The notes under the pieces: model-generated
What the model saw: the letters and a program-made list of their open reading frames with translations, nothing else
Database searches by the model: none
Told to the model about the DNA's origin: nothing
Source: an uncultured Chloroflexia bacterium
Lineage (GTDB): Bacteria; Chloroflexota; Limnocylindria; Limnocylindrales; CSP1-4
Assembly (NCBI GenBank): GCA_963740825.1
Contig: CAVUFD010000002.1
Span: 1,070,990-1,134,989 of the forward strand
Length of the DNA stretch: 64,000 nt
Direction of reading: 5' to 3'
Shown: positions 6,806 through 20,921 of the stretch, piece after piece
Numbering within the stretch: position 1 is the first letter of the stretch
Layout: each line of letters starts with the position of its first letter
Made by a program: the position numbers and the translations under genes

Positions 6806-7291
6806 ATGCCCGAGCTGACGTACCGGGCGACGCTCGACCAGCCGCCGGGCGTCGTGTTCGACTACGTCGCGGACGCCGAGAACAACCCGACCTGGCACGA
6901 GCACGTCCGAGAGACGCGGTGGATCGACGATGGACCGACGCGCCTCGGGCGGCGCGGACGCCAGACGGGCCACCTGCTGTGGCGCGACTGGGAGTTCGTC
7001 GCGGAGGTCGCCGCGTGGGACCCGCCGCACCTGGTCGCGTTCCAGGTGGTCGAGGGCACCCGGATTCGGACGACGATCCGCGTCGAGCCGGCGGGCGACG
7101 GCACGTTGATGTCGCTCACCGTCCGGACCCCGCGGATCCTCGGCCGCCGCATCGACGGCCTGATCAGCCGCGTCATGCAGCGGACCACGGCCAAACGGGA
7201 GCGAGGGGACATCACGCGCCTCCGGGCCGCCCTGGCGGCGCGCGACGATGGGCCTAGCTCGACGCGCCCTCCGGCAGCGGGATCGGGCTGA
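6806..7291 (+). CDS. SRPBCC family protein
   Basis: VFDYVADAENNPTW START-fold signature. Confidence 0.85.
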   Translation: MPELTYRATLDQPPGVVFDYVADAENNPTWHEHVRETRWIDDGPTRLGRRGRQTGHLLWRDWEFVAEVAAWDPPHLVAFQVVEGTRIRTTIRVEPAGDGTLMSLTVRTPRILGRRIDGLISRVMQRTTAKRERGDITRLRAALAARDDGPSSTRPPAAGSG

Positions 7292-7631
7292 CCAGCTGGA
7301 AGTAGTTGCCGTCGGGATCGCTGAACGTCGCGATCCACGCATCGGGCGCCATCTCGAAGGTGTAGGGCTCGCGAACGACCGTCGCGCCGGCGGCCTTGAA
7401 CGTCGCGAAGTCGCCCTTCACGTCGGGGGTCTCGATGTTGATGATCAGCCGCCCGGGCTCGGGGTTGGTGCCGTGCACCTCGCTGTGCGGTCCGACGGTG
7501 AGCCCGCCCGAGCCGACGATCCAGCCCACGTACCCGCCGTCGTCCCAGCCGGGCTTCCCGAGCAGCTTCGTGTAGTAGTCCGCCACCCGCTGCGGGTTCT
7601 CGGAGCCGATGAGGATGCCGTTGAGATTCAC
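7254..7631 (-). CDS. VOC/glyoxalase family protein
   Basis: ATFSDPDGNYFQL motif; 125 aa. Confidence 0.9.
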   Translation of the reverse strand: MNLNGILIGSENPQRVADYYTKLLGKPGWDDGGYVGWIVGSGGLTVGPHSEVHGTNPEPGRLIINIETPDVKGDFATFKAAGATVVREPYTFEMAPDAWIATFSDPDGNYFQLVSPIPLPEGASS

Positions 7632-7757
7632 GATGCCTCCTTCGCCTGCCCGTCCACCCTACCCACGTGCGGTCACCGGCGCCAGCCGGGTCGGCGCCGC
7701 AGGCGCGAAGATGGCGCGACAGTCGGGAGCGGGGCTCGCGCGAACGGAGGTGGTGCG

Positions 7758-8783
7758 ATGGCCGAGAACGTGCTCGATCGGGTGGGCGAGGCGGCGCTCT
7801 ACCGGGCGCTGCGGCGCTTCTGGCACCCGGTCATGTGGGCCGACGACCTGGGGGACCGTCCGGCGGCGGCTACCCTGCTCGACGAGCCGCTTGCGATCGT
7901 GCGCCTCGACGGCGCGGTCCGAGCGTTCAAGGACCTGTGCGTCCACCGGGGCACGGCGCTGTCGCTGGGCTGGGTCGCCGACGGGCACCTGGTGTGCGCG
8001 TACCACGGCTGGACCTACGACCCTGAGGGGGTCTGCACCCGGATCCCCGCCAGCCATGGGACCAACATCCCGAGCAAGGCGCGGATCGTCCGCCACCGCG
8101 CCGCCGAGCACGCAGGCCTGATCTGGGTCTGCCTCGACGACGAGCCCGCGATGGGCCTGCCCGCCTTCCCCGAGTGGGCCGACGACGCGTACCGCAAGAT
8201 CAGGATCCCGCAGTACGACTGGCACTGCAGCGCCGCGCGGCGGGTCGAGAACTTCGTCGACTTCAGCCACTTCGCGTGGGTGCACGAGGGCATCCTGGGC
8301 GACCGTTCGAAGCCCGAGATCCCTGATCACGACGTCGTCCGGGGCGCGACCACGCTGTCGTTCGAGCTCGGGATCGAGGAGCCGGCGAACCCGGTCAAGG
8401 GCGATGCGGGCGACGCGGGGCGGATCCAGCGCACGCCGAGCCGGTACACGATCTCGATGCCGTTCTCGGTCCATCTCGACCAGCCGCTCGAGGACGGCAT
8501 CCACTTCGTGCTGTTCGTCGCCTCGTGCCCGCTGTCGGCCAAGGAGACGCGCAACTTCACCTGGAACGCGCGCAACTACGAGCTGGACCCGGCCGCCGAT
8601 CGGGGCTTCGTCGACTTCCAGCAGGTGATCCTGGACCAGGACCGCGTCGTCGTGGAGTCGCAGCGCCCCGAGGAGCTGCCGATCGACCTGTCCGAGGAGC
8701 TCCACATCAAGGGCGTCGACCGCGTGTCCATCGACTACCGCCGCTGGCTCGGCGAGATCGCGACCCTGGAGGCCCAGCGATGA
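7758..8783 (+). CDS. Rieske non-heme iron oxygenase alpha subunit (VanA/demethylase-like)
   Basis: Rieske motifs DLCVHRG and CAYHGW; mononuclear Fe motif ENFVDFSHFAWVH; GGAGG RBS. Confidence 0.92.
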   Translation: MAENVLDRVGEAALYRALRRFWHPVMWADDLGDRPAAATLLDEPLAIVRLDGAVRAFKDLCVHRGTALSLGWVADGHLVCAYHGWTYDPEGVCTRIPASHGTNIPSKARIVRHRAAEHAGLIWVCLDDEPAMGLPAFPEWADDAYRKIRIPQYDWHCSAARRVENFVDFSHFAWVHEGILGDRSKPEIPDHDVVRGATTLSFELGIEEPANPVKGDAGDAGRIQRTPSRYTISMPFSVHLDQPLEDGIHFVLFVASCPLSAKETRNFTWNARNYELDPAADRGFVDFQQVILDQDRVVVESQRPEELPIDLSEELHIKGVDRVSIDYRRWLGEIATLEAQR

Positions 8784-9526
8784 ACGCCCTGAGGTACCGG
8801 CTCCGCAACCCCCGTTTCCACCCGTCGGCGATCCTGCTCGCGACCCAGCTCGTCGGCGTCATCCTCTACGCCTTCGTCGACGCCGACCGCGGTCGGGCGC
8901 TGCTGTCCCTGTTCGGTCTGCTGGTGCTCGTCCTCGTGGCGCGCGCCGTGGAGCGGACGCCGGCGCTGACCTGGGTCTCGATCCTGATCGGCGTGCCGAT
9001 CGTCATCCTGATCGCGCTCGAGCTCGCGTTCCCGGACGACCTCACCATCCTGCTGGTGCTGTCGATCCTGCTGTCGGCCTACTACCTGTACGCGTCATAC
9101 GCGCTCGTCCGCTACATGTTCCACGACGGGATCGTGACCCCCGACGAGCTCTATGCGACGGGCGCCACGTTCACGGTGCTCGCGTGGGGGTTCGCGTACA
9201 TCTTCCTCGCCGTCCAGACGGCATGGCCCGGGTCGTTCACCGGACCCGGCGATCCGGGCGCGGCACAATCCTGGTTCGCGCTCCTGTTCCTGTCGTTCAC
9301 GACGCTCACGAGCGTCGGGCTGTCGGACATCCTTCCCGTGCTGTCCCAGGCGCGCTCCGCGGTCATGATCGAGCAGGTGGTCGGGCTGATGTACGTGGCG
9401 ATCGTCATCAGCCGGGTCGTCGCGCTGACGGTCGCGCGCCAGCGGTTCGAGGGCGTGCGGGCCGTGCGGAGCGCGCCGGCCTCACCGGTTGCCGCCGGCC
9501 AGCCAGATGTCGACGAGGTGGGCTGA
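8780..9526 (+). CDS. Potassium/ion channel family membrane protein (Ion_trans_2)
   Basis: FLSFTTLTSVGLSDILP pore motif; multiple TM helices; ATGA overlap with the upstream gene. Confidence 0.85.
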   Translation: MNALRYRLRNPRFHPSAILLATQLVGVILYAFVDADRGRALLSLFGLLVLVLVARAVERTPALTWVSILIGVPIVILIALELAFPDDLTILLVLSILLSAYYLYASYALVRYMFHDGIVTPDELYATGATFTVLAWGFAYIFLAVQTAWPGSFTGPGDPGAAQSWFALLFLSFTTLTSVGLSDILPVLSQARSAVMIEQVVGLMYVAIVISRVVALTVARQRFEGVRAVRSAPASPVAAGQPDVDEVG

Positions 9527-9570: not shown

Positions 9571-10620
9571 TCAGACGTCGAACAGCTCGGACCAGCTCGG
9601 CTCCCCGCCGGAGAGGGCCTGGTCCACCGACATCGCGAGCTTCATGCGCTTGCTGAGGTCGTAGTCCTCACCGATCAGGCCGGCGAACCCGAGGTCGTCC
9701 TTGAGCCCGGCGTAGTCGTTCTTGAGCTGCGTCTTGACACGGGTCCGATCGGCGGTCGTGAGCTCCGGCGCCTCGTGCGCGGCGATGATCGCGGCGCGGT
9801 AGAACCCGTCTGCCTTCTCGAGGTCCTGGTCGGCGAGCGCCTCACTGGCCGCCTTCACATGCGCCGCGATCGCGCTCAGGCTCCGATACTCCGGGCCTGC
9901 CTCGGTGACCTCGAGCCGGAACAGGAGGTGGTCGATCCCCTCGAGCGGTGAATTGTTGGCGCCGAAGCGGAGCTGGCCGTTGGCCACGCTCAGCTGGCTC
10001 GGATCGACCTCCTGCTCGGTCGCCCTGATGGCCGCCCAGTAGCCGCCCCGCTGACCGGCGGCGAAGGCATCGTGCAGCGCGAGGTGGATCCCCCCGTCGT
10101 TCAGCAGCGACTGCAGTCCGGTCGCCAGCGGCGACGCGATGTTCAGGGCGCTCGAGAACTGGGGAACCGCCAGGAGCGCCGAGAAGCTGCTCAGGGTGGT
10201 GATGAAGCTCTTGAGGTAGTTCTCCCCCTGGACGGCGATCAGCCCGGCGTCCAGGCTCACGACCCCACCGTTGAACGGGATGAGAGGCGTCAGGACGAAG
10301 TTCCTCGCGATCACGTCCCCGCTCGCCTCCTGGGTCAGGCCGGCCCGGCTGGCGTCGGCGATGGTCGGGAAGTCCACCGGCTGGCCCTGGAAGTCGAACC
10401 TCACGAGGGCATGGACCGCGGGATACCAGGTCTGGAGGTACTGCACCTGCTTGGCGAGGTAGACGTTCGCGATCCAGAGGCGGAGGTAGTGCCGCCCGTA
10501 TTCGAGCGGCACGTAGTCGGTCGTGACGTCGACCCGAGCCGCATCGATCGGGACGTACACCATCTGCTTGGTCGTCTTGTCCCAGAGGTCTGTGAGGCGC
10601 TGCCTCAGGTCATCGAGCAC
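9571..10620 (-). CDS. Hypothetical protein, last gene of the CHAT/STAND operon (putative effector or substrate)
   Basis: Well-formed ORF; GGAGG 7 nt before GTG 10620 (alternative start 10635); central amphipathic helical hairpin. Confidence 0.8.
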   Translation of the reverse strand: MLDDLRQRLTDLWDKTTKQMVYVPIDAARVDVTTDYVPLEYGRHYLRLWIANVYLAKQVQYLQTWYPAVHALVRFDFQGQPVDFPTIADASRAGLTQEASGDVIARNFVLTPLIPFNGGVVSLDAGLIAVQGENYLKSFITTLSSFSALLAVPQFSSALNIASPLATGLQSLLNDGGIHLALHDAFAAGQRGGYWAAIRATEQEVDPSQLSVANGQLRFGANNSPLEGIDHLLFRLEVTEAGPEYRSLSAIAAHVKAASEALADQDLEKADGFYRAAIIAAHEAPELTTADRTRVKTQLKNDYAGLKDDLGFAGLIGEDYDLSKRMKLAMSVDQALSGGEPSWSELFDV

Positions 10621-10642
10621 TCCCGGTCCTCCCACCGTATGG

Positions 10643-13600
10643 TCAGCCCTGCCGCCGCGTCGGCATGTCGAACACGCAGACGTCGAGGGCTCGCTCCCAG
10701 GCGTCGGGCCGTTGCCCGGACGTCAGGACCGCAGCCTGCACCTTCGTCACCGCTGACAGGATGCCCGCCGGTCCGCCAGTCGCGAACCCGGCCGCGGCGC
10801 GATTGACGGCGTCCCAGGCGGTGGTCGCCAGCGACGGCTCCAGGGGCGGGATCACGACGACCCGCGACCCGAGACGCGCCAGCTCCGTGGCGAACAGGCG
10901 GGTGAGGTTGGCCGCCTCGCGGTCGCTCCCCACGCGCCCCGTCGCCTCCTCGGGCGGGTATCCCTGGACGATGAACAGGCCGGCCTGCGGATAGGCGCGC
11001 CGCAGGTCCTCAGGTCGCAGGACCTGGTCCGACGCGGTGTCGGCGACGGCGCTCGAGGACGAGGGGGCGACCTGCGACCCGTATGCGCGGGCCGGCGCGA
11101 GCCGCAACGCGCGTCCGCCGTGGTCCTCGACGGTGATGCCAATGACGTGCACGACGTCGGAAGCTGCTGGCTCACCGGTGTCCGGCGATCGAGCAGCACG
11201 GACGAGTGACCACGCGATCTTGCCCCCCGTCCGCTTCTCGAGGGCCCGGCGCACGATGCCGGCCGCGACGTCATCACCCGCGATCGTTTCGCCGATGAGC
11301 CGGCCCGCGTGAGCCCGACGGACGTCGGGCCGGCTCGCGTCGGCAAGGCGCGTGACCCGAACGGGCAGGTCGGTCGGCGCCGCCTCGGGACCGGTCATCG
11401 CGAGCGCGAGCATCGCCTCCCAGTTGAATCGGTGGAGGTCGCCTCGCGGGGAGAGCCGGACCTGCCATGGCGGTCGCATCAGCGGCACCTGGGCCGCCAC
11501 CAGCCCCTTGAGGCCGTCGGGCACCGACCTCGCGAGCGCGACGTACGCATCGAGGTCGGACACGACGGCCACCTCCGACGGATGTGCGCGGTACGGGCGG
11601 AGCTGCAGTGGAGGGAGACCGCGCACCGGTCGCAGGATCCACATCGTGGGGGTCAGCTTGACCGCGACTCGTCCGCTCCCACTCGACGAGGCGTTCGTGA
11701 GGCTCGGGCTGTCGCCGGGCGAGGTACCACCCGGCGCGTCCGAGAGTTGGATGTCGACGTCCAATCGTGTCCACAGCAGCGTCAGGGTCTTCATCGAGTC
11801 GCCGAACCGCCGACCGATCCAGATGAGCAGGCCGAACGCGGCGAGCGTCAGGCCGTACAGCGCGAACTGCTGCCAGAACCCGAGGCTGTCGACGCCGGAC
11901 CAGAGCAGCGCGACGAGGTAGTGCCACCCGATGAACAGGCCGACGACCAGGCCGATCGCCGTGCCGACGAGCGTCGCGATGTCCCGCCCAGCCGACGGGG
12001 CCGCGGGCAGCTCGAGATCGACAGGCCCGGAACCCCGGCGGCTGCGGTACCGCGCCCACTCCGTCGGCAACGCGACCCCGGTGGCCGAGGACACGCCGTA
12101 GCGCTGCTCCAGCCACGTCGCGAACGCGTCGGCGGCTGCGACGCCTGACGGTCCGTTCGCCGTGCTGCGCACGGCCAGCGAGGCGATCAGCCGGGCGAAC
12201 CAGGGACGAAGCTCAGGTGGCTCGAGCTGGTCGAAGGCGGCGTCGGTCGGCGCGGCCGCGATCGCCTCCAGCTCCTCTGTCGTCGCGAGCGTGGACACGC
12301 CTCTTCGTCCGAGGTCGATCGCCATCGCCAGATACGCCGCGAGCGCCGCGGCGGCGAACGGCGCGGCATCGTCCGAGGTCCCTCCTGGCCCCTCCTCCGT
12401 TGCTTGCGGGTGCGTCCCGAGCAGGGCCGCGAGCGCCGCCGTCGAGAACGCCCCGAACGCGTCGCGGCAGGTGGCATACCGGGCGTTCGCCCACGCGAGG
12501 ATCGGCACTGCCGCCTCCGGCAGGCGCAGGGCGAGCAGCTCCGCCTCCTCGAAGGCGATCTCCGCGCAGCGTCGGGGACCGATGCGCTCGAGGAGGCTCG
12601 CCGGGACCATCGCCTCGATCGATGGCATGCCCTCGCCCAGCACGGCGTCCCGGAGGACGACCCGGAGTGTCCCCTCAGGCCGACCCGGGTAGCGGGCCGA
12701 CCAGGCCGGCCCGGACCGCTCGATGCTGACCGTGAAGCTGCGGCCCGGCAGGTGGACGCCGTACGCCGCCGCAACGAGCACGAGCTCACGGAGGTCGCGA
12801 AACAGCATGTCGCTGTCCGCGACGCCGACGCTGGGCACGGCCGTCGCCGCGGGCTCGACCGTCGCGAGGCCCCATGTCACGAGATCCCGGGCCGACCCAC
12901 GATCGATGGCGTAGCTCGCCTGCCACGTCAGGTGGATCTCCTCCGGTGGGACCTGTCCGCGGTCGAGGGGTTGCGCCGGCCCGGCGAGGCCTTGGAGCGA
13001 CCGGAACAGGGCCCTGTCCGCGAGGCGAGGCGACGACGCAAGGGAGCCTGCGACGGTCTCACCCTCGTCGGTCGAACGTAGTCGGCGACTCAGCCATGCC
13101 ATCGCACGGTCGGCGCTCCGCTGCAGCTCCATGTTCTGCGCCGCGCTCGCGGTCGCTGCCGCGGCCTGCAGGTGGCGCCGGGCCTGGGCGTAGAGGCCGA
13201 AGGCGCTCTGGAGCTCCGCGACGCGGACGAACAACGGCGGCACGAGCCGGTGTGCGTTGATCGGCTCAAGGCCCATCGTGACGACGTTGGGCACGAGGAG
13301 CCACTTGGCGACGTCCTTCCAGCCGGCCACCATGCCCTCGGGCGTCTCGGTAAGCCGTTCCGCGAGCCTCATCGCCAGGATCGTCGAGACGAGCCGGTCG
13401 CCATCGGCCGTCGAGACATCGGCATCGACGACCCCGAGCATCGCGATGGTCTCCGCGGGCGATCGGACGGCAGGGTAGGCCGTGCGCGCCACCTCGAGGC
13501 GGACGCGCGTGGCGACATCGGGCGGCGCCTGCCAGTCGACCCATGGCACTTCCGGTCGCTGAGCAGGCACAAGCTCGAGGGCCCGGGCGAGGAGGTGTCC

Positions 13601-16600
13601 GGCCCAATCCGGGTCGGGAGCGAGCACAGCGGCCCGGCCCGCCTGGAGATGCAGCATGGCCCGGAGGGCATCGATCGCCGCCGGCCCGCCTTCGGTATCC
13701 GCGAGCCACGACGAATGCGTGCGTTCCACTTCAGCCGCGACCCACTGCGGACCGGACGTCGTCAGCCCGATGCCCTCACGGGCCGACCGGGTGTTGTGCA
13801 GGTCGACCCACGGCGTTGGAACCTCGATCTCGTAGGCCACGCGATCAACCGATGTCAGCGGGCCAAAGTCCGGGTGGTCGATCGTCCATCCGCCGCCCGT
13901 CGCGAGCGTGGCGACGATGGCCAGCGAGTCGTCGCCCGGATGGTTCGGGTCGTAGATCCGGATCTCGATGTGGTCGGCGGCCTCTGCCGCCGCAAACCCC
14001 ACCACGTGGTGGCGGCCATCCCTCGCCGCGTCGCCTTGCCGGGCGGGTGTCCTGAACGAGAGCCTGAGCGGGACGGGCCGACCTGCGGCAATGTCTGCCC
14101 GGATTGAAGGCCACGTCTCGGCGAACGAGTGCGTCGAACCGCGACGAACCAGCAGGGTCTGCCGCCTCGCGAGGTAGGCGAACTCCGGGCTGCCATTCGG
14201 CGGCGGCGAGGTGTCGTCCGGCGGAGCGATGCCGCGCATCCACAGGTCGACGGCGGCGACCGCCATGCCGCCGTCGAGCCCATCAGCCGCGTCCCCGATG
14301 GACAGCCCGCTGACCTTCGCGATCGGGCCGGGCGGAAAGCTGTTGACGAATCGCCAGGCGTTCCGCGACGGCCGGAAGCCGGTGTCCAGCTCGTCCGCGG
14401 CCCGCGACGCCGTCGGTGCGAATCCGGGGCCGGGCCGGGGCAGCTCCAGGAGCTTCCGGTTGGCCGCCGGGTCAAGCTCGACGAAATCGACCAGCGTCTC
14501 GATCGCGGCCAGCGCCGATGCCGCCTCCTGGGCGTTCGCGAACGGCAGATCCGCCGCCTGCCAGGCGACCCACAGCTCATGGACGAGGTCGGCTGACGGC
14601 GGGGCGCCGGCGTGCCTCGCCGCGGCGACCTGCCCCGCCAGCGCACGCCGATAGAGGCGTTCGAGCAGCGGCGTCTTCGCGTGGGCCCGCGCCGCCTCGG
14701 CCACCTCGAGCCAGGCCGACCCGAGGGCGACGGCGTCGCCCGCCTGCTGGAGCAGGCGGACCCGAGTGGCCAGGACGAACGGGCGTAGCGGGTTCTCGCT
14801 GACGCCGATCGGGTCGTCGGGCTCGACGGGCCGGGCCGCCCCGTCGCTGGACAGGACGCGGTCGAGCACCTCCCGCATCCAGGCCGGCCGTTCCGCGAAC
14901 AGGCGGTGCTGGACCATGGTCCACCACGTCGCGCCTCGGGCGGGGTCGTGGGCGAGGACGCGCAGGCCGCTGTCGAAGTCGGCCCAATCGAGCGCGCCGA
15001 GGTCACCCTCGATCGTCAGCTGCTCGATGGCGCGCGCGCTCGGCTCGAGCTCCGACGCCTGCGGTCGGCCATGCCCGGCGAAGTAGCGCACCAGCATGTC
15101 GCGGACGTCCGGGGCCAGGTCCAGGATCTCGCGCTCCGGCTCGCCGCCCGAACGGTGCATGCCGACCCACTCCTGGTCGGCCAACGCCCTGAACTGGCGC
15201 TCGCCCTCTTCCTCGCCCAGGTTCGCGGCGGCGCGGAAGGTGGTCAGGTCGAAGTGGCCCAGCGTCGCCACGCGTGGCAGGACCTCCTCGAGCCCCGCGT
15301 CGCGCAGGCGCTGGATGAGCCGGAGCTCGACGTACCGCCCCGAGCCCGCGGTCTCCACCATCTCGGGCGTGGGCGGGGGCGTCGATCGCGCCCAGTCGAG
15401 GTACATCCGCACCAGGTAGGGGTTGCAACGAGGGACGTCGCGCGGGCCGTCGTCGGGATCGTCGTAGTCGACCTCGATGCTGGTCCTCAGGTCGGGCGAG
15501 CTGGCCCGGATGACCGGCTCGACCAGCAATTCGGGCACCTTCTCGTGCTTCAGGTACAGCCGTGTCTCGTCGTGGGAGAAGCCGCGGATCTCGTGGATCC
15601 GCAGGTACGGCCGATCGGGCAGCGTGGAGCTGGGAACGTTCCAGCCGGCCCCGCCTGCGGCGAGCGCGCGCCTGCCGGAGAAGATCACGCGGAGGCCCGG
15701 GACGCCGCCGTTCGGCGGCGCCTGGTCGTCCACGAGCGCATCGGGGCCGTCGTGCAGGGCGCGGAGGATGCGGAACGTCTCCTCGAGGGTCGAGTCCGTG
15801 CCGGCCTCCGGCTCGACCTTGGCGAGCTCCTCGCAGGTGTCGAGCACGATCACCACGCGCTTCCCGATCGATTGGATGGCCTCGATGTAGGCGCGAATCC
15901 CCGCGGCCATGCGCGGGTCGAGGGTCGCGCGTTCGCGCCTGAGGCCGTCAGCCTTCTGGGTCTCGTGCAGGAGCGTGAACTGCTCCTCGGCCCGGTCGAA
16001 CAGGTTGTTCGTGGTCACGTTGCCGGCCGGACGCAGCTCGGCCGCCAGATCGACCAGGAGCAGCCCGGGATTGAGCCTCGGGTAGTCGAGGTTCAGATAG
16101 TCGAAGTCCACTCGCGCGACCGCCGCCTCGCGGTCGAACGGGCGGGGATCGCCGGAGCATGGCGACCCGGGCGCCTGGGTCATCAGGCAGGTCGCGTAGC
16201 GAACGACCATCGTCTTGCCCACGCCACCCGGCCCGATGAGGTGCAGCGCCCACCGGTCGTCCGGACCGTCGACGAGGGTCCGGATCGCCTCGATCTGCTC
16301 CTCGCGCCGGTGGAAGGCCATGAGGTGGCGGAAGTCGAGCTCTCGCCGCTTCGAGAGTTCGATCGTGCGGCCGGCGCCGGCGATCGCGAGGCTGAGATCC
16401 CTCGCGGCCGCGTATTCGAACAGGACGGCCAGCGGCCGGGCGACGTCGATCCAGTCGCGGATCGTCGCGACGTCCAGAACCTCGAAGGCGATCGCCAGCT
16501 TCTGCTCGAACGCCTTGGCGGCGGCCTTGGCATCCTCCGCATGGATCGCCAGCTCACTCCAGTCGAGCATCGGTTCGGGGACGGCGGCCACTGGGCGGAC

Positions 16601-17128
16601 GGCGTGGACCTGCGCACCGATCTGCGCCGTCGTCGCGAGCAGGCTCCCCGCGCCACGGATGACTTCCGGACGTCCCCGTGCCGTCGCCGTCTGGCGTGCG
16701 CGGAGGAGCGGCGACTCGGCTGCCCGACGCTGGCCGCCGGCCGGTGGATCGCCGGCGCCGTCGTTGCGTTCGACGGCGAGGTACGCCCGCATCGTCTCGG
16801 CTCGGGCGACCGCGGTCATCACGTAGTAGTCCGCGTCCGGTCCCGCGTCAGGTCCTGCGTCGACCGGATAGACGTCGACGACACCCGCGGCGCGCAGCCG
16901 CGCGAGGGCGTCTGCGACGCTCTCGTCGGGGGCCGTCGGGAACCCGCATGCCTCCGCGAGGCGGATCGTCCAGCCCGGTGCAAGGGCGGCCCAGACGCGT
17001 GCCGGTTCCTGTGCGGCCGACGTTCGAGACCGCTCCGCCTCCTCCAGGACGGTGGCCATGGACTCGTCGAGTCGGCGACTCAGCTCGACGAGGTCGGGAT
17101 CGCTCGGCCCAGGCGGGGCGGCGGTCAC
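10643..17128 (-). CDS. Giant STAND-type ATP-binding protein with inserted papain-like pseudo-protease, 2 TM helices and a degenerate C-terminal CHAT-like domain
   Basis: 2161 aa. Walker A GPGGVGKT (~16211-16234), Walker B VIVLDTCEE, sensor VIFSGRR, IRGFS..E and CNP motifs; GLDGGM/HHVV/IYDPN insert; TM ~11815-11980. Confidence 0.82.
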   Translation of the reverse strand: MTAAPPGPSDPDLVELSRRLDESMATVLEEAERSRTSAAQEPARVWAALAPGWTIRLAEACGFPTAPDESVADALARLRAAGVVDVYPVDAGPDAGPDADYYVMTAVARAETMRAYLAVERNDGAGDPPAGGQRRAAESPLLRARQTATARGRPEVIRGAGSLLATTAQIGAQVHAVRPVAAVPEPMLDWSELAIHAEDAKAAAKAFEQKLAIAFEVLDVATIRDWIDVARPLAVLFEYAAARDLSLAIAGAGRTIELSKRRELDFRHLMAFHRREEQIEAIRTLVDGPDDRWALHLIGPGGVGKTMVVRYATCLMTQAPGSPCSGDPRPFDREAAVARVDFDYLNLDYPRLNPGLLLVDLAAELRPAGNVTTNNLFDRAEEQFTLLHETQKADGLRRERATLDPRMAAGIRAYIEAIQSIGKRVVIVLDTCEELAKVEPEAGTDSTLEETFRILRALHDGPDALVDDQAPPNGGVPGLRVIFSGRRALAAGGAGWNVPSSTLPDRPYLRIHEIRGFSHDETRLYLKHEKVPELLVEPVIRASSPDLRTSIEVDYDDPDDGPRDVPRCNPYLVRMYLDWARSTPPPTPEMVETAGSGRYVELRLIQRLRDAGLEEVLPRVATLGHFDLTTFRAAANLGEEEGERQFRALADQEWVGMHRSGGEPEREILDLAPDVRDMLVRYFAGHGRPQASELEPSARAIEQLTIEGDLGALDWADFDSGLRVLAHDPARGATWWTMVQHRLFAERPAWMREVLDRVLSSDGAARPVEPDDPIGVSENPLRPFVLATRVRLLQQAGDAVALGSAWLEVAEAARAHAKTPLLERLYRRALAGQVAAARHAGAPPSADLVHELWVAWQAADLPFANAQEAASALAAIETLVDFVELDPAANRKLLELPRPGPGFAPTASRAADELDTGFRPSRNAWRFVNSFPPGPIAKVSGLSIGDAADGLDGGMAVAAVDLWMRGIAPPDDTSPPPNGSPEFAYLARRQTLLVRRGSTHSFAETWPSIRADIAAGRPVPLRLSFRTPARQGDAARDGRHHVVGFAAAEAADHIEIRIYDPNHPGDDSLAIVATLATGGGWTIDHPDFGPLTSVDRVAYEIEVPTPWVDLHNTRSAREGIGLTTSGPQWVAAEVERTHSSWLADTEGGPAAIDALRAMLHLQAGRAAVLAPDPDWAGHLLARALELVPAQRPEVPWVDWQAPPDVATRVRLEVARTAYPAVRSPAETIAMLGVVDADVSTADGDRLVSTILAMRLAERLTETPEGMVAGWKDVAKWLLVPNVVTMGLEPINAHRLVPPLFVRVAELQSAFGLYAQARRHLQAAAATASAAQNMELQRSADRAMAWLSRRLRSTDEGETVAGSLASSPRLADRALFRSLQGLAGPAQPLDRGQVPPEEIHLTWQASYAIDRGSARDLVTWGLATVEPAATAVPSVGVADSDMLFRDLRELVLVAAAYGVHLPGRSFTVSIERSGPAWSARYPGRPEGTLRVVLRDAVLGEGMPSIEAMVPASLLERIGPRRCAEIAFEEAELLALRLPEAAVPILAWANARYATCRDAFGAFSTAALAALLGTHPQATEEGPGGTSDDAAPFAAAALAAYLAMAIDLGRRGVSTLATTEELEAIAAAPTDAAFDQLEPPELRPWFARLIASLAVRSTANGPSGVAAADAFATWLEQRYGVSSATGVALPTEWARYRSRRGSGPVDLELPAAPSAGRDIATLVGTAIGLVVGLFIGWHYLVALLWSGVDSLGFWQQFALYGLTLAAFGLLIWIGRRFGDSMKTLTLLWTRLDVDIQLSDAPGGTSPGDSPSLTNASSSGSGRVAVKLTPTMWILRPVRGLPPLQLRPYRAHPSEVAVVSDLDAYVALARSVPDGLKGLVAAQVPLMRPPWQVRLSPRGDLHRFNWEAMLALAMTGPEAAPTDLPVRVTRLADASRPDVRRAHAGRLIGETIAGDDVAAGIVRRALEKRTGGKIAWSLVRAARSPDTGEPAASDVVHVIGITVEDHGGRALRLAPARAYGSQVAPSSSSAVADTASDQVLRPEDLRRAYPQAGLFIVQGYPPEEATGRVGSDREAANLTRLFATELARLGSRVVVIPPLEPSLATTAWDAVNRAAAGFATGGPAGILSAVTKVQAAVLTSGQRPDAWERALDVCVFDMPTRRQG

Positions 17129-19446
17129 GGCTCGCCTCCCGTCCGTCCGGCCGCGCGCTTGGCTTCCGCGTCGAGCGCGTCGTCGTCGTTTGCCGTCCGC
17201 ATCTGCGGCGTGAGGTCCCGCAGCATGTTGATCGCATTCGTCACGACCTCTTGGTCGAGCTTGGCCGGGACGCCCCAGCCGGTCGACTGCGCCAGGTTGA
17301 AGACGATGAGCCGGTCCAGCGAGTCACGGGCCGCGATGCTCAGTGGGGTCGGCACGTGCTCGGGCCGCCACCCGAGCAGGAACTGGCGGTACACCAGCGA
17401 CGCCTCCTGATAGACGGGTGCGTCGTCCGTCGAGTCCTGCTTGAGGAATCTCCCGTGCAGCGGGCCGAGGGGCAGGCGATCGACGTCGCTCGACTGCAGG
17501 AAGTCGTTGATCGCGTTGATCGTGGTCGCCTGGGGCTCGACCGGGATCGTGTGATAGGTCAGCACGGCGCGTGTCGACGTTCGTGCGCGCTCGTCGACGA
17601 GCCCCTGACTGCCAAACAGTTCGACGAACGTGTCCCAGAACAGGAGATCGTGTGCGTCCTCCAGGAACAGGACGACCTTCACGTCCGCCTCCGCGCTCAC
17701 AAGGCCGCGCTGCTCGCAGACGACGCGTCGGATCTCGAGCAGATCGAGCATCAGCGCCTTCGCGAGCTTCTGATCGTCGCTGAGTCCGAATGCGGCGAAT
17801 TCGCCCGGCAGGCCACTCACGGGCGGATCGGCGAGCAGCTGGCGCGTCAATGCCCAGAACTCGGGCAGGCGTCCCTGAAGGGCTGCGTGCTCGGGCATGT
17901 GGCCGAGGAATGTCACGGTGTTGGCGAAGGCCTTGGCGATCAGCTCGACAAAGACCCCCGGGCGGCTCGGCCACTTGTGATTTGAGATTCCGAGCTGGAC
18001 CTTGCTGACGAGGATCGGGATGTGCCCATCGCGCAGCGCCTCGCCCGCCAGCTCCTGCAGGAGTCGCTCGCTGCCGTATTGGGGCTGAGACTGCTGGTCG
18101 CTGTCGGTCGCGTCGCGCCGGTCGACCGGGATCACGAGGAATTGCTTGCCGCCGTTCGAGACCAGGTTTCGATAGGCGGCGAAGAAGGACCATCGGCCGC
18201 AGAACACCGGGTAGTCCGGTTTCCGCGTGAACATCTGGGCGGCCTCGAGGCGCGCCTGATCAGGGTCGGTGACCGTGAGGTCGATGCTCACCGGCCCGAT
18301 GGCTTCGGCCATGTACAGCGTCGGGAGGGCCCAGTCGATCTGCGATCGAGCGTCGTAGTTACCGAACAGGATTCCGGCACGCCGGCCCTTGGCCGCCGCC
18401 TGCGCGATCTCATCGCCGCTCAACAGCGACGTGTAGAAGCCGCGCGTGAACAGGCGGCAGGCCTGGTCCGCGACGTTGCCGGACATGCCGACCACCACCG
18501 GGATGCCGCGCGCCACGAGCTCCGCGGCCATCGGTCGCCCGATCGACACCTCTTCGGCGGACGTCGGGGCGCAAGCGTTCAGCACGACCAGGCCGGGCAG
18601 CGTCAGGTTCGCCTCGGTCGCGAGGAGGCCGAGGAGCCGCTCCGCGTCGACCGGGTCATCCATCGTCTTGTCCGGCTCGCCGCGGAAGGCGATGACCGGC
18701 CGGTCATCGGACATCTTGCCGTGCCCGATGACGTGGACGACGTTCGGCTTGAACGACTGGATGGCCCGTGAGACGTCCGACGCTGTCGCCCCGATCAGCA
18801 GTCGGGTGTTGAGCACCTTGTTCACGTGCTTCAGCGCGCGAAGCAGCCCGAGGTACTCGGCACCGGCACGGATGTTCGGGTCGCCGAGCTCGGACGCAAC
18901 GACGACGAGCACCTTGGGCGGCGACGGGAGGTGCGTGATGCGCCGGGCGTCGTCGCCCGTGCCGGCGACCCGCCGTGTCATCTGCACGCCAGAGGCGGCG
19001 AGAAAGGCCGCATCGGGTCCCGTGGTGTGCATCACATCCCAGGGCAGGACGTTCATCTTCGAGTCCGCCGGCCAGGTGAGCGCGAGCTCGATCTCGTCGC
19101 GCCGCGTCGCAGCCGCGACGATCTTCGTCCACAGCTCACTGCCGAGCAGCGTGTTGAACAGGTAGACGCCGAACCGCTGGACACCGTCCTGCGCGGCGGC
19201 CTGGTTCATCACGTTCCGGAACTCCATGTCCAGCCCATCCGCGGTGATCCCGTCAGGGAGCGCATCGGGGCTCCCGATCGGAGGGAGCGGGTAGGCCGAC
19301 GTGTCGGTCGCCACCTCTACGAGCACTCGCGGCTCGGGAAGGATCAGGTCCTGTGAGCCCGGCACGCGCATCGGCTGGCCATCCAGGTCGAGCACGCGCA
19401 CGCTCCAGCCGTGCGGCAGCGTCTCGACGTCGATGGTGAACCGCAT
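17125..19446 (-). CDS. CHAT domain protease fused to a degenerate (inactive) STAND NTPase
   Basis: LPWDVM, VHVIGHG (His), LVVLNACA (Cys), GIPVVVGM and DWALPTLY; C-terminal FCGR...YGSERLL...VVLFLEDAH. Its stop overlaps the next start (GTGA). Confidence 0.85.
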   Translation of the reverse strand: MRFTIDVETLPHGWSVRVLDLDGQPMRVPGSQDLILPEPRVLVEVATDTSAYPLPPIGSPDALPDGITADGLDMEFRNVMNQAAAQDGVQRFGVYLFNTLLGSELWTKIVAAATRRDEIELALTWPADSKMNVLPWDVMHTTGPDAAFLAASGVQMTRRVAGTGDDARRITHLPSPPKVLVVVASELGDPNIRAGAEYLGLLRALKHVNKVLNTRLLIGATASDVSRAIQSFKPNVVHVIGHGKMSDDRPVIAFRGEPDKTMDDPVDAERLLGLLATEANLTLPGLVVLNACAPTSAEEVSIGRPMAAELVARGIPVVVGMSGNVADQACRLFTRGFYTSLLSGDEIAQAAAKGRRAGILFGNYDARSQIDWALPTLYMAEAIGPVSIDLTVTDPDQARLEAAQMFTRKPDYPVFCGRWSFFAAYRNLVSNGGKQFLVIPVDRRDATDSDQQSQPQYGSERLLQELAGEALRDGHIPILVSKVQLGISNHKWPSRPGVFVELIAKAFANTVTFLGHMPEHAALQGRLPEFWALTRQLLADPPVSGLPGEFAAFGLSDDQKLAKALMLDLLEIRRVVCEQRGLVSAEADVKVVLFLEDAHDLLFWDTFVELFGSQGLVDERARTSTRAVLTYHTIPVEPQATTINAINDFLQSSDVDRLPLGPLHGRFLKQDSTDDAPVYQEASLVYRQFLLGWRPEHVPTPLSIAARDSLDRLIVFNLAQSTGWGVPAKLDQEVVTNAINMLRDLTPQMRTANDDDALDAEAKRAAGRTGGEP

Positions 19447-19457
19447 GGTGGGCCGCC

Positions 19458-20921
19458 CTACTCTGGCTGCGTGGCGGCGCGGAGCTCGTGGCTCCGACCG
19501 AGCAGCCACTCGCCGAGCGCCGTGCCCTGCGCGGCGAGCTCGGGTCGCTCCGTCCCTGCCCGTGTGCCCTCAGGGCCGCTGGTCGCGAGTGCCACATTCG
19601 CGTTCGCGGCCAGCTGGTCGATGGCCTTGCGCCGCTCGTCAGTCGACGGCAGGCCCGCGGTGCGCTGCCAGGCGAGGAACGACGCACAGACGAGGTAGCG
19701 AGGGCTGAGCAGGCTGCGGACCGGCGCGCCGGCGCCGAGCGCGAGCTCGCCGGCCCATGAGCGCGCCTTGGTCGTCAGCCCGTCGCGGACCGCCGTGAGG
19801 CCGCACAGCTCCGCGATGGTCTTCCCGCCCTCGGTGAGCGGACCGAGCGCTCGATCCAGGACTCGATCCACGTCGCCCATGTCGGCGACGACCTGGGCCG
19901 TGGCCGATGAGGCGGCCGGATCGATCCCTTCGATGGCCTCGGTGCCGCTCATCCCGAGGCGATCGGCCGCACGGGCCATCAGCACGAGGCGGACGATCGG
20001 CGCCGGATAGGCGCCCGACGGACGCGCCATCTCCTCGGGGGGACCGAGCACGAGCTCCCGCAGCGCCTTGATGGCCCAGGGCCCGATCATCGCTACGGAG
20101 ACCAGGTCCGCGAACAGCTCGGCGCTCCACCTGCCCCAGCGCTCCGCTCGGGCGGTGGCTTCGGGTTCGGCGGGCTGCCAGGCCGCGGCCACGACCGCCC
20201 GGAACGGTTGGACGAGGCCGAGCTCCTGCTGGATGTTGTGGCCGACTTCGTGGGCGATGAAGACCAGCCACCAAGGCGAGTCGATGCACCACGTCGGCAG
20301 CCGCAGGGTCGGAACGGGGAGGTTCGCCAGGAAGGACTCGAGGCCGCCGATGTCCGTGGCCTCGCGGAGGGCTGATGGCGCCTGCTTCGCCGCCTCCCAG
20401 GTCGCCGGCGAGTACTCGGCCTCCACGTAGGCAAGGGGCGCCGGGCCGATCCGGACGCCTGGCGGCAGCCCGGTCGAGACGAAGACGTGCCGGTAGCAGC
20501 TCCAGACGACCTCATCCGCCGCCTTGAGCGTAGGCGCGAGGACAGGATCGTCGCGCTGGTCGAACTTCTCCCGGTAATAGGTCCAGACCCGGTGCATCCA
20601 GACGACCGCCTCGTCGATCTCGCGGCAGTCCACGTTGACGTCGGCTGCGCTGCGGCCGAGGGTGACATCGACGGACTCGAGGGCCGACGACAGCGCCGCG
20701 AGCCCGCCCTTCAGGACCTGTTCGAGGGCGTCGAGGCGCGTCCGGTGGAGCTGGGCGAACGGGGTGTCGCCGGTCGAATCGGCCCTTCGCCGTACGAACC
20801 AAGCATTGATCGCCGTTCCGAGCCGAGCCAGCTCGCGCTCGGACTGCTCGCGACGCACGATCGCCGGCATCGCACTCCCCGGCGCAGCCGATTGGCCGCC
20901 AGCGACCGGGCCTGTGACCAT
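19458..20921 (-). CDS. HEXXH zinc metallopeptidase-like protein
   Basis: FIAHEVGHN with downstream ELFADL third-ligand motif and YPAPIVR. Confidence 0.75.
   Translation of the reverse strand: MVTGPVAGGQSAAPGSAMPAIVRREQSERELARLGTAINAWFVRRRADSTGDTPFAQLHRTRLDALEQVLKGGLAALSSALESVDVTLGRSAADVNVDCREIDEAVVWMHRVWTYYREKFDQRDDPVLAPTLKAADEVVWSCYRHVFVSTGLPPGVRIGPAPLAYVEAEYSPATWEAAKQAPSALREATDIGGLESFLANLPVPTLRLPTWCIDSPWWLVFIAHEVGHNIQQELGLVQPFRAVVAAAWQPAEPEATARAERWGRWSAELFADLVSVAMIGPWAIKALRELVLGPPEEMARPSGAYPAPIVRLVLMARAADRLGMSGTEAIEGIDPAASSATAQVVADMGDVDRVLDRALGPLTEGGKTIAELCGLTAVRDGLTTKARSWAGELALGAGAPVRSLLSPRYLVCASFLAWQRTAGLPSTDERRKAIDQLAANANVALATSGPEGTRAGTERPELAAQGTALGEWLLGRSHELRAATQPE

Follow-up and report, generated by a model that had tools for sequence, protein, structure and literature searches.

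The DNA analysed here (the window) is a 64,000-nucleotide stretch from an uncultured Chloroflexia bacterium of the order Limnocylindrales (GenBank assembly GCA_963740825.1, contig CAVUFD010000002.1, positions 1,070,990 to 1,134,989 of the forward strand). Between positions 9571 and 20921, its minus strand encodes, in operon order, an HExxH protein, a CHAT (caspase-like) protease, a STAND-type nucleoside triphosphatase (NTPase) and a C2-like protein. The subject of this study was the STAND gene, P0001, and a papain-like domain that interrupts the long helical arm of its product. The original prediction, made by a model from the sequence, described this domain as an integrated papain-like pseudo-protease in which the catalytic Cys was replaced by Asp, and proposed that it was a decoy or a ligand-binding domain comparable to the integrated domains of plant NLR immune receptors.

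Results

The STAND gene was recognised as an open reading frame and from its translation (10643..17128, minus strand; 2161 residues). Its product comprised, in order, an N-terminal domain (residues 1-270), a P-loop NTPase, a long helical arm with the insert, two transmembrane helices and a C-terminal CHAT-like domain, and alignment to homologs began at residue 1. The AAA_16 profile matched residues 274-436 with an E value of 6.4e-6 and 27.2 bits, under the Pfam cut-off of 32.6, and was the sole family match for P0001 in the Pfam and NCBIfam libraries; homologs of P0001 gave AAA_16/NACHT matches (PF13191/PF05729). The Walker A motif GPGGVGKT (residues 299-306; 16211..16234, minus strand) and the Walker B motif VVIVLDTCEE (from residue 425, same strand) were both invariant in an 11-sequence family alignment. 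With a P-loop of the STAND/AAA_16/NACHT type and both Walker motifs intact, P0001 is, as judged by its sequence, a STAND NTPase. The two transmembrane helices were predicted at 11813..11977 of the minus strand (approximately residues 1718-1743 and 1754-1772; Kyte-Doolittle maxima of 2.13 and 1.65), where the homologs were also hydrophobic. The arm around the insert appears to be helical, as suggested by its sequence, by a homolog named 'TPR repeat protein' in its source, and by a WD40 propeller in the homolog P0176. A further homolog, P0158 (2567 residues), carried the NTPase/helical module twice in tandem, with query residues 15-782 and 281-901 corresponding to subject residues 14-744 and 813-1433.

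A whole-protein search with P0001 returned 70 other large homologs (71 with P0001 itself). The insert was shared with P0003, a 2107-residue ortholog, and was skipped exactly by the next-closest homologs, P0153-P0156, which were 46-52% identical over the N-terminal 900 residues. BLAST alignments to these four covered query residues 1 to 898/911 and then 1114/1124 to 2161, and the subject was contiguous across the gap (for example, s898 to s900). At the junction, the window read LLELPRPGP, about 215 residues, and SGPQWVAAEV, where P0153 read LLALPR-GRNARLG-SGPRWLVSQ, with a linker of 7 residues. As bounded by the insert-free homologs through BLAST and the junction alignment, the insertion occupied residues 899-1113 (13790..14434, minus strand). 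The papain-fold pseudo-peptidase domain proper, delimited by the family hidden Markov model (HMM), the AlphaFold2 model and VIA-align, occupied residues 913-1107 (13808..14392, minus strand), over which the family profile, built from 37 members, gave a domain E value of 2e-56. The discrete insert of about 190 residues that the original prediction had placed at 13810..14395 was therefore located almost to the base.

The insertion was rare. The family HMM found the domain in 2 of the 71 large homologs (P0001 and P0003), and a tblastn search of 79 related metagenomic loci found the insert in none of them; among the 32 loci with both flanking anchors, the site never held over 80 additional residues. 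Scans for DNA of a further insert-bearing ortholog yielded only copies of 28-42% identity on genome contigs, and the insert was not found in the metagenome scan. The original prediction had asked whether orthologous ATPases lack the insert or carry a different one at the same site, and both cases occurred. P0176 (2642 residues) carried a WD40 propeller at residues ~1248-1560 (Pfam WD40, E 1.6e-33), in the same region as the insert and between the equivalents of P0001 residues 862 and 1155. The presence of a propeller at this place supports the arm region as the ligand-binding part of these proteins. P0176 also had about 580 additional N-terminal residues relative to P0001.

Relatives of the insert were numerous. 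A phmmer search with a 220-residue piece against 1.84 billion representative proteins gave 732 matches at E≤1e-3 and 170 at E≤1e-10. One of the relatives was P0003 (E 3e-97), and standalone members matched at E 1e-21. Most of the relatives were standalone proteins of 200-270 residues, and some members were fused to ricin-type or fungal lectins, FG-GAP repeats or an Ig-like domain. The consensus of the family was the set of motifs GLCGGM, NHQV and YDPN, matching the standalone Cys-His-Asp proteins with GLCGGM, NHQVL and YDPN that the original prediction had named. A search from the standalone copy of the source genome reached at least 1803 proteins, all of them named 'hypothetical protein' or unnamed, and precomputed Pfam domains were absent from these relatives. 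Pfam, NCBIfam and PADLOC assigned no family to the insert, and Pfam gave no significant family for the domain in 27 homologs or in any of 37 aligned members (0/37). The best sub-threshold Pfam matches were BtrH_N (PF14399; E 0.15 in 2/37) and DUF3335 (PF11814, 'Peptidase_C39 like'; E 0.17 in 1/37). The GLCGGM family is thus large and real, unnamed and without a Pfam model, and is a putative family of cysteine peptidases or amidases. A tblastn search with the standalone paralog found no match in 50,697 phage records, and a plasmid search with the same protein gave 3 matches, all 'hypothetical'.

On the minus strand, the insert peptide read GFRPSRNAWRFVNSF from residue 917, GLDGGM from residue 950, RHHVVGF at about residue 1039 and YDPN from residue 1059. 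The position of the nucleophile was occupied by Asp952, encoded by GAC (14273..14275, minus strand; the reverse complement of gtc), a codon two substitutions away from TGC or TGT. His1040 (CAC, 14009..14011, minus strand) was retained as the catalytic-type His, with its flanks changed from NHQ to RHH, and Asp1060 of YDPN (GAC, 13949..13951, minus strand) was retained as the third triad residue. The alignment used to judge these positions held 152 rows, namely the best 150 of the 732 phmmer matches, the window copy and the paralog from the same genome. In the Cys column, 148 rows had Cys, 2 had Asp and 2 had Ala. Both Asp rows were the integrated copies, those of the window and of P0003 (GLDAGM), and the Ala rows were P0072, a standalone protein of 252 residues, and P0126. 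The column was likewise Cys in 36 of 36 standalone copies recovered from the phylum or family of the source genome, and in 35 of 35 copies from species-representative genomes; standalone homologs with Asp, which would have spoken against the original prediction, did not occur in any of these sets. The triad His was present in all 146 occupied rows, and the third residue was Asp in 144 and Glu in 2 of 146.

Loss of Cys was also uncommon in longer proteins. Among the best 150 matches, 45 of the 47 proteins longer than 350 residues kept the Cys, including the lectin and FG-GAP fusions scanned, and the two exceptions were P0003 and P0126. The latter (814 residues) carried the papain-like domain at residues 12-225, N-terminal to a KAP-family P-loop NTPase (Pfam E 1.3e-27), with Ala at the Cys column, and was the sole KAP-NTPase fusion among those 150 matches.

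Across the remaining 150 sequences, 37 columns reached a conservation of 80% or more, and of these the window copy kept 30 and P0003 kept 29. Among the columns lost were the Cys, the Gln that follows the His (Q in 135/144, His here) and a Ser beside a deletion. This deletion removed consensus columns 89-111 (23-24 columns) from the window copy and from P0003 and occurred in none of the 150 other members, whose minimum occupancy of the segment was 8 of 24 columns. In the family, the conserved Cys lies in GxCGG[MF], and the deleted segment follows an invariant Arg (consensus ...DSFdlPxGplrYxxwM...). Both the Asp and the deletion were shared by P0003, an independent metagenomic ortholog, and a sequencing artefact is therefore excluded; the original prediction had considered such an error unlikely on the basis of the codon at 14273-14275. 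Judged by sequence and model together, the insert is a member of the fold without the nucleophilic Cys, and hence is predicted not to be an active cysteine peptidase. By its alignment, it is a divergent offshoot of the GLCGGM/NHQV/YDPN family, predicted to be inactive.

The fold was modelled with AlphaFold2 on the 37-row alignment, yielding for the insert a mean predicted local distance difference test score (pLDDT) of 89.5 and a predicted template modelling score of 0.85. In the model, the Asp (model residue 56) was the first residue of helix 56-68, which is the core helix; His144 opened the strand 143-153, and Asp164 followed the strand 157-163. Active papain-fold members are described as always carrying their Cys at the N-terminus of the core helix (PMC10318531), and the Asp therefore stands at the nucleophile position. 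An exhaustive structure search with VIA-align returned 52 chains at Z≥5, and about 45 of the best 50 rows were, by title, cysteine peptidases or other papain-superfamily proteins. The matches included the BtaeB C-terminal domain (9jdd_A; Z 9.5, 4.8 Å over 156 residues), SpeB or streptopain (4d8b_A; Z 8.8, 4.7 Å over 163 residues), interpain (3bba_B; Z 8.2), staphopain C (8oig_A; Z 8.1, 3.9 Å over 145 residues), a C39-like peptidase (3erv_A; Z 7.3) and IdeS (8a47_C; Z 7.3). Cathepsins, UfSP, AvrRpt2 and others followed in lower rows, with Z values down to 5.3 for papain-superfamily proteins. Foldseek gave no match at E≤1e-3 against the PDB (best 9jdd_A, E 8.7e-3) or against viral structures (BFVD), and the assignment of the fold therefore rests on VIA-align. 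Sequence searches of the PDB reached only chance level (E 1.6 with the piece and 0.51 with the profile), and the available portions of the literature searched contained no functional description of BtaeB, the top fold match.

The insert shares with these papain peptidases (the BtaeB C-terminal domain, SpeB, interpain, the staphopains, the C39-like peptidase and IdeS) the core helix and sheet over ~145-165 residues at Z 7.3-9.5, with the canonical order of His and Asp, but differs from them in its low identity (8-12%), its lack of a Pfam match and its Asp at the nucleophile position. The modelled insert is of papain-like (clan CA) fold, with a core helix and an antiparallel sheet, the His on a strand and the Asp following the next strand, which bears out the fold named in the original prediction.

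The source genome (4.07 Mb in 4 contigs) encoded, on another contig, a standalone paralog of 240 residues with GLCGGM, NHQV and YDPN and an intact Cys-His-Asp triad (G000 C1:2610444-2611130, equal to L001:1495-2217, plus strand). The paralog was 36% identical to the insert (BLASTP E 2e-30), and close homologs of the paralog (60-90% identity) turned up in 11 of the 23 genomes sampled from the same taxonomic family. Across a phylum sample, the domain occurred in 32 of 401 genomes, and the integrated form occurred only in the source genome. Among 60 other genomes of the same taxonomic family, the papain domain was present as standalone copies and the STAND part was found in 0/60, in a scan that used a stricter first look and may have missed weak matches; the STAND gene is therefore an accessory gene.

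With 5 fragments removed from the 152 rows, a FastTree phylogeny of the other 147 placed the window copy and P0003 in a 16-tip clade with the paralog, with a support of 0.875. The stem of the integrated pair was 1.27 substitutions per site, compared with 0.94 for the 95th percentile of all branches. An IQ-TREE phylogeny of 42 rows, composed of clade members and 24 random others with occupancy of at least 75%, recovered a 15-tip clade with an SH-aLRT of 100, and the stem (1.16) was the second longest of 82 branches. Over the insert, P0001 and P0003 were 72.6% identical. Elsewhere, their identity was 85% in the NTPase/helical part, 80% in the following arm, 72.5% in the transmembrane region, 57% in the N-terminal 270 residues and 53% in the C-terminal domain, and the insert is therefore not decaying. 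These sequence data support a shared origin with the paralog of the same genome, fast change after capture, and subsequent constraint.

A standalone group with the motif HHVV was considered as a source of the insert and was rejected, as its motif was offset (HHVV versus RHHV), the deleted segment was kept, and an identity of 36-38% made it no closer. A complex prediction of the insert with the paralog of its own genome had a score of 0.00 and a mark of 0.32, and is evidence neither way. The last ~130 residues of P0003 diverged fully from P0001 after about residue 1977 and were Arg/Gly-rich, which looks like a frameshift in the metagenomic contig.

The C-terminal CHAT-like domain of P0001, about 380 residues long (residues ~1780-2161; 10646..11791, minus strand), was delimited with the Atlas, hhalign and the family alignment. 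Its nearest Atlas clusters were CHAT proteins (score 0.92), and hhalign aligned it to the CHAT domain of the neighbouring gene with a probability of 49% and an E value of 1.8e-4. In this alignment, VIGHG and LNAC of the enzyme faced VIGIT and VQGY in P0001, and the CHAT His and Cys are therefore both missing from the C-terminal domain. Both residues were apparently also missing across 19 aligned homologs of the domain. The domain thus looks like a second dead protease domain, although the CHAT-like assignment is one of modest confidence. By analogy, it could pair with the active CHAT protein, as cFLIP does with caspase-8.

Three other genes made up the operon with P0001. The first (19458..20921, minus strand) encoded, by its translation, a protein of 487 residues (P0342) with a zincin-type HExxH motif, HEVGH. 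It had no Pfam match, and HExxH was kept in 62 of the 62 P0342 homologs that covered the motif; from its sequence, P0342 is probably an unclassified zincin-like metallopeptidase. The second gene (17125..19509, minus strand) encoded the CHAT protease (Pfam CHAT, E 2.1e-21), with the His of VIGHG and the Cys of LNAC intact, and its stop overlapped the start of the STAND gene (GTGA). The fourth gene (9571..10635, minus strand) encoded a protein of 354 residues (P0343) that was assigned, from an AlphaFold2 model and a weak fold match, a C2-like beta-sandwich with helices. Its model had a pLDDT of 77.6, and the best match was the C2 domain of cPLA2, a weak likeness (Z 8.6, 3.4 Å, 116 residues). The model also contained two long helices as insertions and, at the C-terminus, a bundle of three helices similar to MIT domains (Z ~7). 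The C2-like assignment is made with modest confidence from the model, and P0343 may be an effector directed to membranes or else a substrate for a protease.

The operon is conserved, with its gene order recurring in the 79 related metagenomic loci. These loci, many of which were cut by contig ends, carried the upstream CHAT gene in 74, the gene for the HExxH protein in 64 and the downstream gene for the C2-like protein in 46 cases. The commonest CHAT variants in these loci kept His-Gly and Ala-Cys. The operon looks like an accessory, patchily distributed system, and may be an undescribed conflict system. Base composition around it was unremarkable, with a GC fraction of 0.69-0.74 across 1-40 kb and no island signal; there was no transfer RNA gene in the window, and nine neighbouring open reading frames had no Pfam matches at 1e-5. 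Just downstream of the operon, the plus strand carried a Rieske/VanA-type oxygenase (7248-8783; E 1e-18 to 2e-22) and an ion-channel-like open reading frame (8525-9526; Ion_trans_2, E 5e-8). The two overlap by about 260 nucleotides, and one of the starts is therefore probably later.

Discussion

The identity of the domain, its fold, its residue changes, its boundaries, its rarity, its paralog and the operon around it were established in this study. The reading of the insert that we favour, and consider reasonably probable, is that it is a catalytically dead papain-fold binding module, either ligand-binding or decoy, added to an NLR-like STAND sensor. Plant NLRs with integrated domains (NLR-IDs) include RGA5 and Pik-1 (HMA). 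As in plant NLR-IDs, a STAND/NLR-type NTPase is joined in P0001 to an extra, non-canonical domain that is missing from most relatives; a free-standing version of the integrated domain is encoded elsewhere in the genome, the integrated one appears to have lost its original activity, and relatives carry other modules. By its sequence, P0001 is of NLR-ID architecture, as the rare non-canonical domain is absent from close homologs and replaced by another module in P0176, and the free-standing counterpart in the host is the 240-residue paralog of the same clade. In contrast to the plant proteins, P0001 is bacterial and membrane-anchored, the domain lies in a loop inside the helical arm and not at an end, there was no sign of a paired helper NLR, and the outputs would be the proteases of the operon. 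RRS1-WRKY is a further plant example, described together with the integrated-decoy model in PMC11702601, where the model was also proposed for bNACHT11. The architecture thus supports, by analogy, the comparison with plant NLR-IDs drawn in the original prediction, and fits an integrated decoy and a ligand-binding domain without separating the two.

Loss of catalysis, binding, the identity of the trigger and the downstream steps are matters that we infer, and they could be connected as follows. The domain would have originated as a copy from the standalone Cys-His-Asp family, of which the source genome retains a member, and would have entered a surface loop in the helical arm behind the NTPase module of a membrane-anchored STAND ATPase. 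The copy would then have lost the nucleophile and the segment of 23-24 columns, while the fold, the His, the Asp and most conserved positions were kept. The former substrate cleft of the dead domain may accommodate a ligand, either a peptide or a protein. Such a ligand would most likely be an invader protein that targets or inhibits the standalone paralog, making the insert an integrated decoy, or else a molecule resembling a substrate. Once bound, the ligand would release the STAND switch through NTP-dependent oligomerisation, and the switch would in turn control the CHAT and HExxH proteases and the C2-like protein of the operon. The Cys was also missing from P0126, an independent KAP-NTPase fusion, in support of the view that NTPase sensors benefit from dead copies of the domain.

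Similar arrangements have been described in prokaryotes. Inactive copies of cellular enzymes were proposed as decoys in prokaryotic NTPase conflict systems (Kaur, Burroughs, Iyer and Aravind 2020, eLife 9:e52696; PMC7159879). Those systems resemble the present one in that an NTPase shares an operon with a caspase-like (CHAT) peptidase and an inactive enzyme copy has an active counterpart (PMC7159879). As far as its sequence indicates, the locus in the window has the same parts, an operon of NTPase and peptidase and a dead papain domain accompanied by an apparently intact paralog. However, the inactive peptidases in the available text of PMC7159879 are caspase- or trypsin-like and hold the effector position of vWA components, unlike the insert in P0001. 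Avs and bNACHT11 share with P0001 a STAND core with a P-loop, after which comes a long region of helices or repeats that serves in them as a sensor and binds proteins directly, and the sensor arms of Avs7 clamp their ligands (bioRxiv 10.64898/2026.01.04.697583). P0001 differs from Avs and bNACHT11 in having no PADLOC match and in its transmembrane helices and CHAT-like C-terminal domain; in the available main text of the Avs7 preprint (bioRxiv 10.64898/2026.01.04.697583), the terms papain and CHAT are absent. Retention of a protease fold for binding or regulation after catalysis was lost is exemplified by the pseudo-caspase cFLIP (PMC8195603), and Rad4/Rad33, UFSP1 and TINAG are inactive papain-like proteins (PMC10318531). 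Unlike the insert, these proteins are eukaryotic and do not lie inside a STAND NTPase. The available portions of the literature searched contained no papain-fold insert of the GLCGGM family in a STAND arm and no such four-gene operon.

Several points weigh against the interpretation of the insert as a dead binding module of a sensor. The role of the helical arm as a sensor is proposed by comparison with other STAND proteins and on the strength of the WD40 propeller in P0176. PADLOC returned zero matches for P0001, and the standalone family has no assigned function, all of its members being 'hypothetical'. The predicted loss of activity rests on one residue, and Asp, His, His and Asp are still in the cleft, where other chemistry is possible. 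The insert is known in two sequences, and its conservation thus rests on a single pair. The taxa of the IQ-TREE phylogeny were picked from the first tree, and that phylogeny is therefore a consistency check and no independent test.

A strict integrated decoy is a sharper subset of the favoured reading, with extra claims. The captured dead copy would mimic the standalone enzyme, bait a phage or invader protein that attacks or inhibits this enzyme, and fire the STAND protein. The standalone, Cys-bearing paralog in the same genome and subclade is consistent with this, as is the loss of the nucleophile, through which the bait could neither process its ligand nor be trapped by it; the concept itself has been published for prokaryotic conflict systems (PMC7159879, PMC11702601). 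However, the insert is only 36% identical to the paralog, carries a deletion that sets it apart and has changes at several conserved positions, and surface mimicry may therefore be poor. No known invader protein targets the GLCGGM family, and homologs of the family numbered 0 in the 50,697 phage records. We therefore hold the strict form only tentatively, as a possible special case.

The dead protease might instead be an internal regulatory or docking module that binds a part of its own system and tunes autoinhibition or the recruitment of proteases, with the STAND pseudo-substrate loop, the CHAT protease, the HExxH protein and the C2-like protein as candidate partners. Proteases and protease-like domains abound in the operon, and inactive peptidase domains have been proposed as dominant-negative regulators or peptide binders (PMC7159879). 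Nevertheless, the partner genes were conserved in dozens of insert-free loci (0/79 with the insert), indicating that an internal partner does not need the insert, and we regard this explanation as unlikely. Residual catalysis, in which Asp952 and His1040 would activate water or support a non-proteolytic reaction, would make the insert an enzymatic output or self-processing module and not a sensor. The triad His and Asp, the Gly-rich GxDGGM turn and most conserved columns were kept, and active sites vary among papain-fold enzymes (PMC10318531). On the other hand, the available text of that source puts a Cys in all active members, and no example of an Asp nucleophile was found in it (PMC10318531); the segment of 23-24 columns was gone in both orthologs, the Gln after the His (Q 135/144) was changed, and the other NTPase fusion has Ala, which is incapable of acting as a nucleophile. 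Catalysis of this kind is accordingly quite improbable. A functionless passenger, that is, a chance insertion that did no harm in a surface loop and lost its activity through drift, would account for the rarity of the insert (2/71 homologs, 0/79 loci), its long branch and its lost catalytic Cys, but is very unlikely given the intact reading frame, the 72.6% identity between two independent orthologs (about that of the transmembrane region and above both termini), the 30 of 37 conserved columns kept, the confident fold and the same Asp, rather than random residues, in both orthologs.

Conclusions

Plant integrated-decoy NLRs are the textbook case of immune receptors gaining specificities. In bacteria, integrated decoys have been proposed comparatively and for bNACHT11, and few cases have all of the pieces together. 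The locus in the window brings together an exact insertion point, insert-free sisters, an alternative module and a surviving parent gene in the same genome, and with all of these at one locus, it is a directly testable system. Two uncharacterised things surfaced in the course of this work, a large papain-fold family without a Pfam model and a conserved four-gene operon of proteases and a STAND NTPase that recurs in no fewer than 79 metagenomic loci. Should the decoy reading be true, the standalone family of more than 1800 members would be a host factor, probably one targeted by proteins of phages or mobile elements, and the guardee could be recognised within the source genome. STAND and KAP NTPases, each with an independent Cys-less fusion, would then have recruited this bait on separate occasions.

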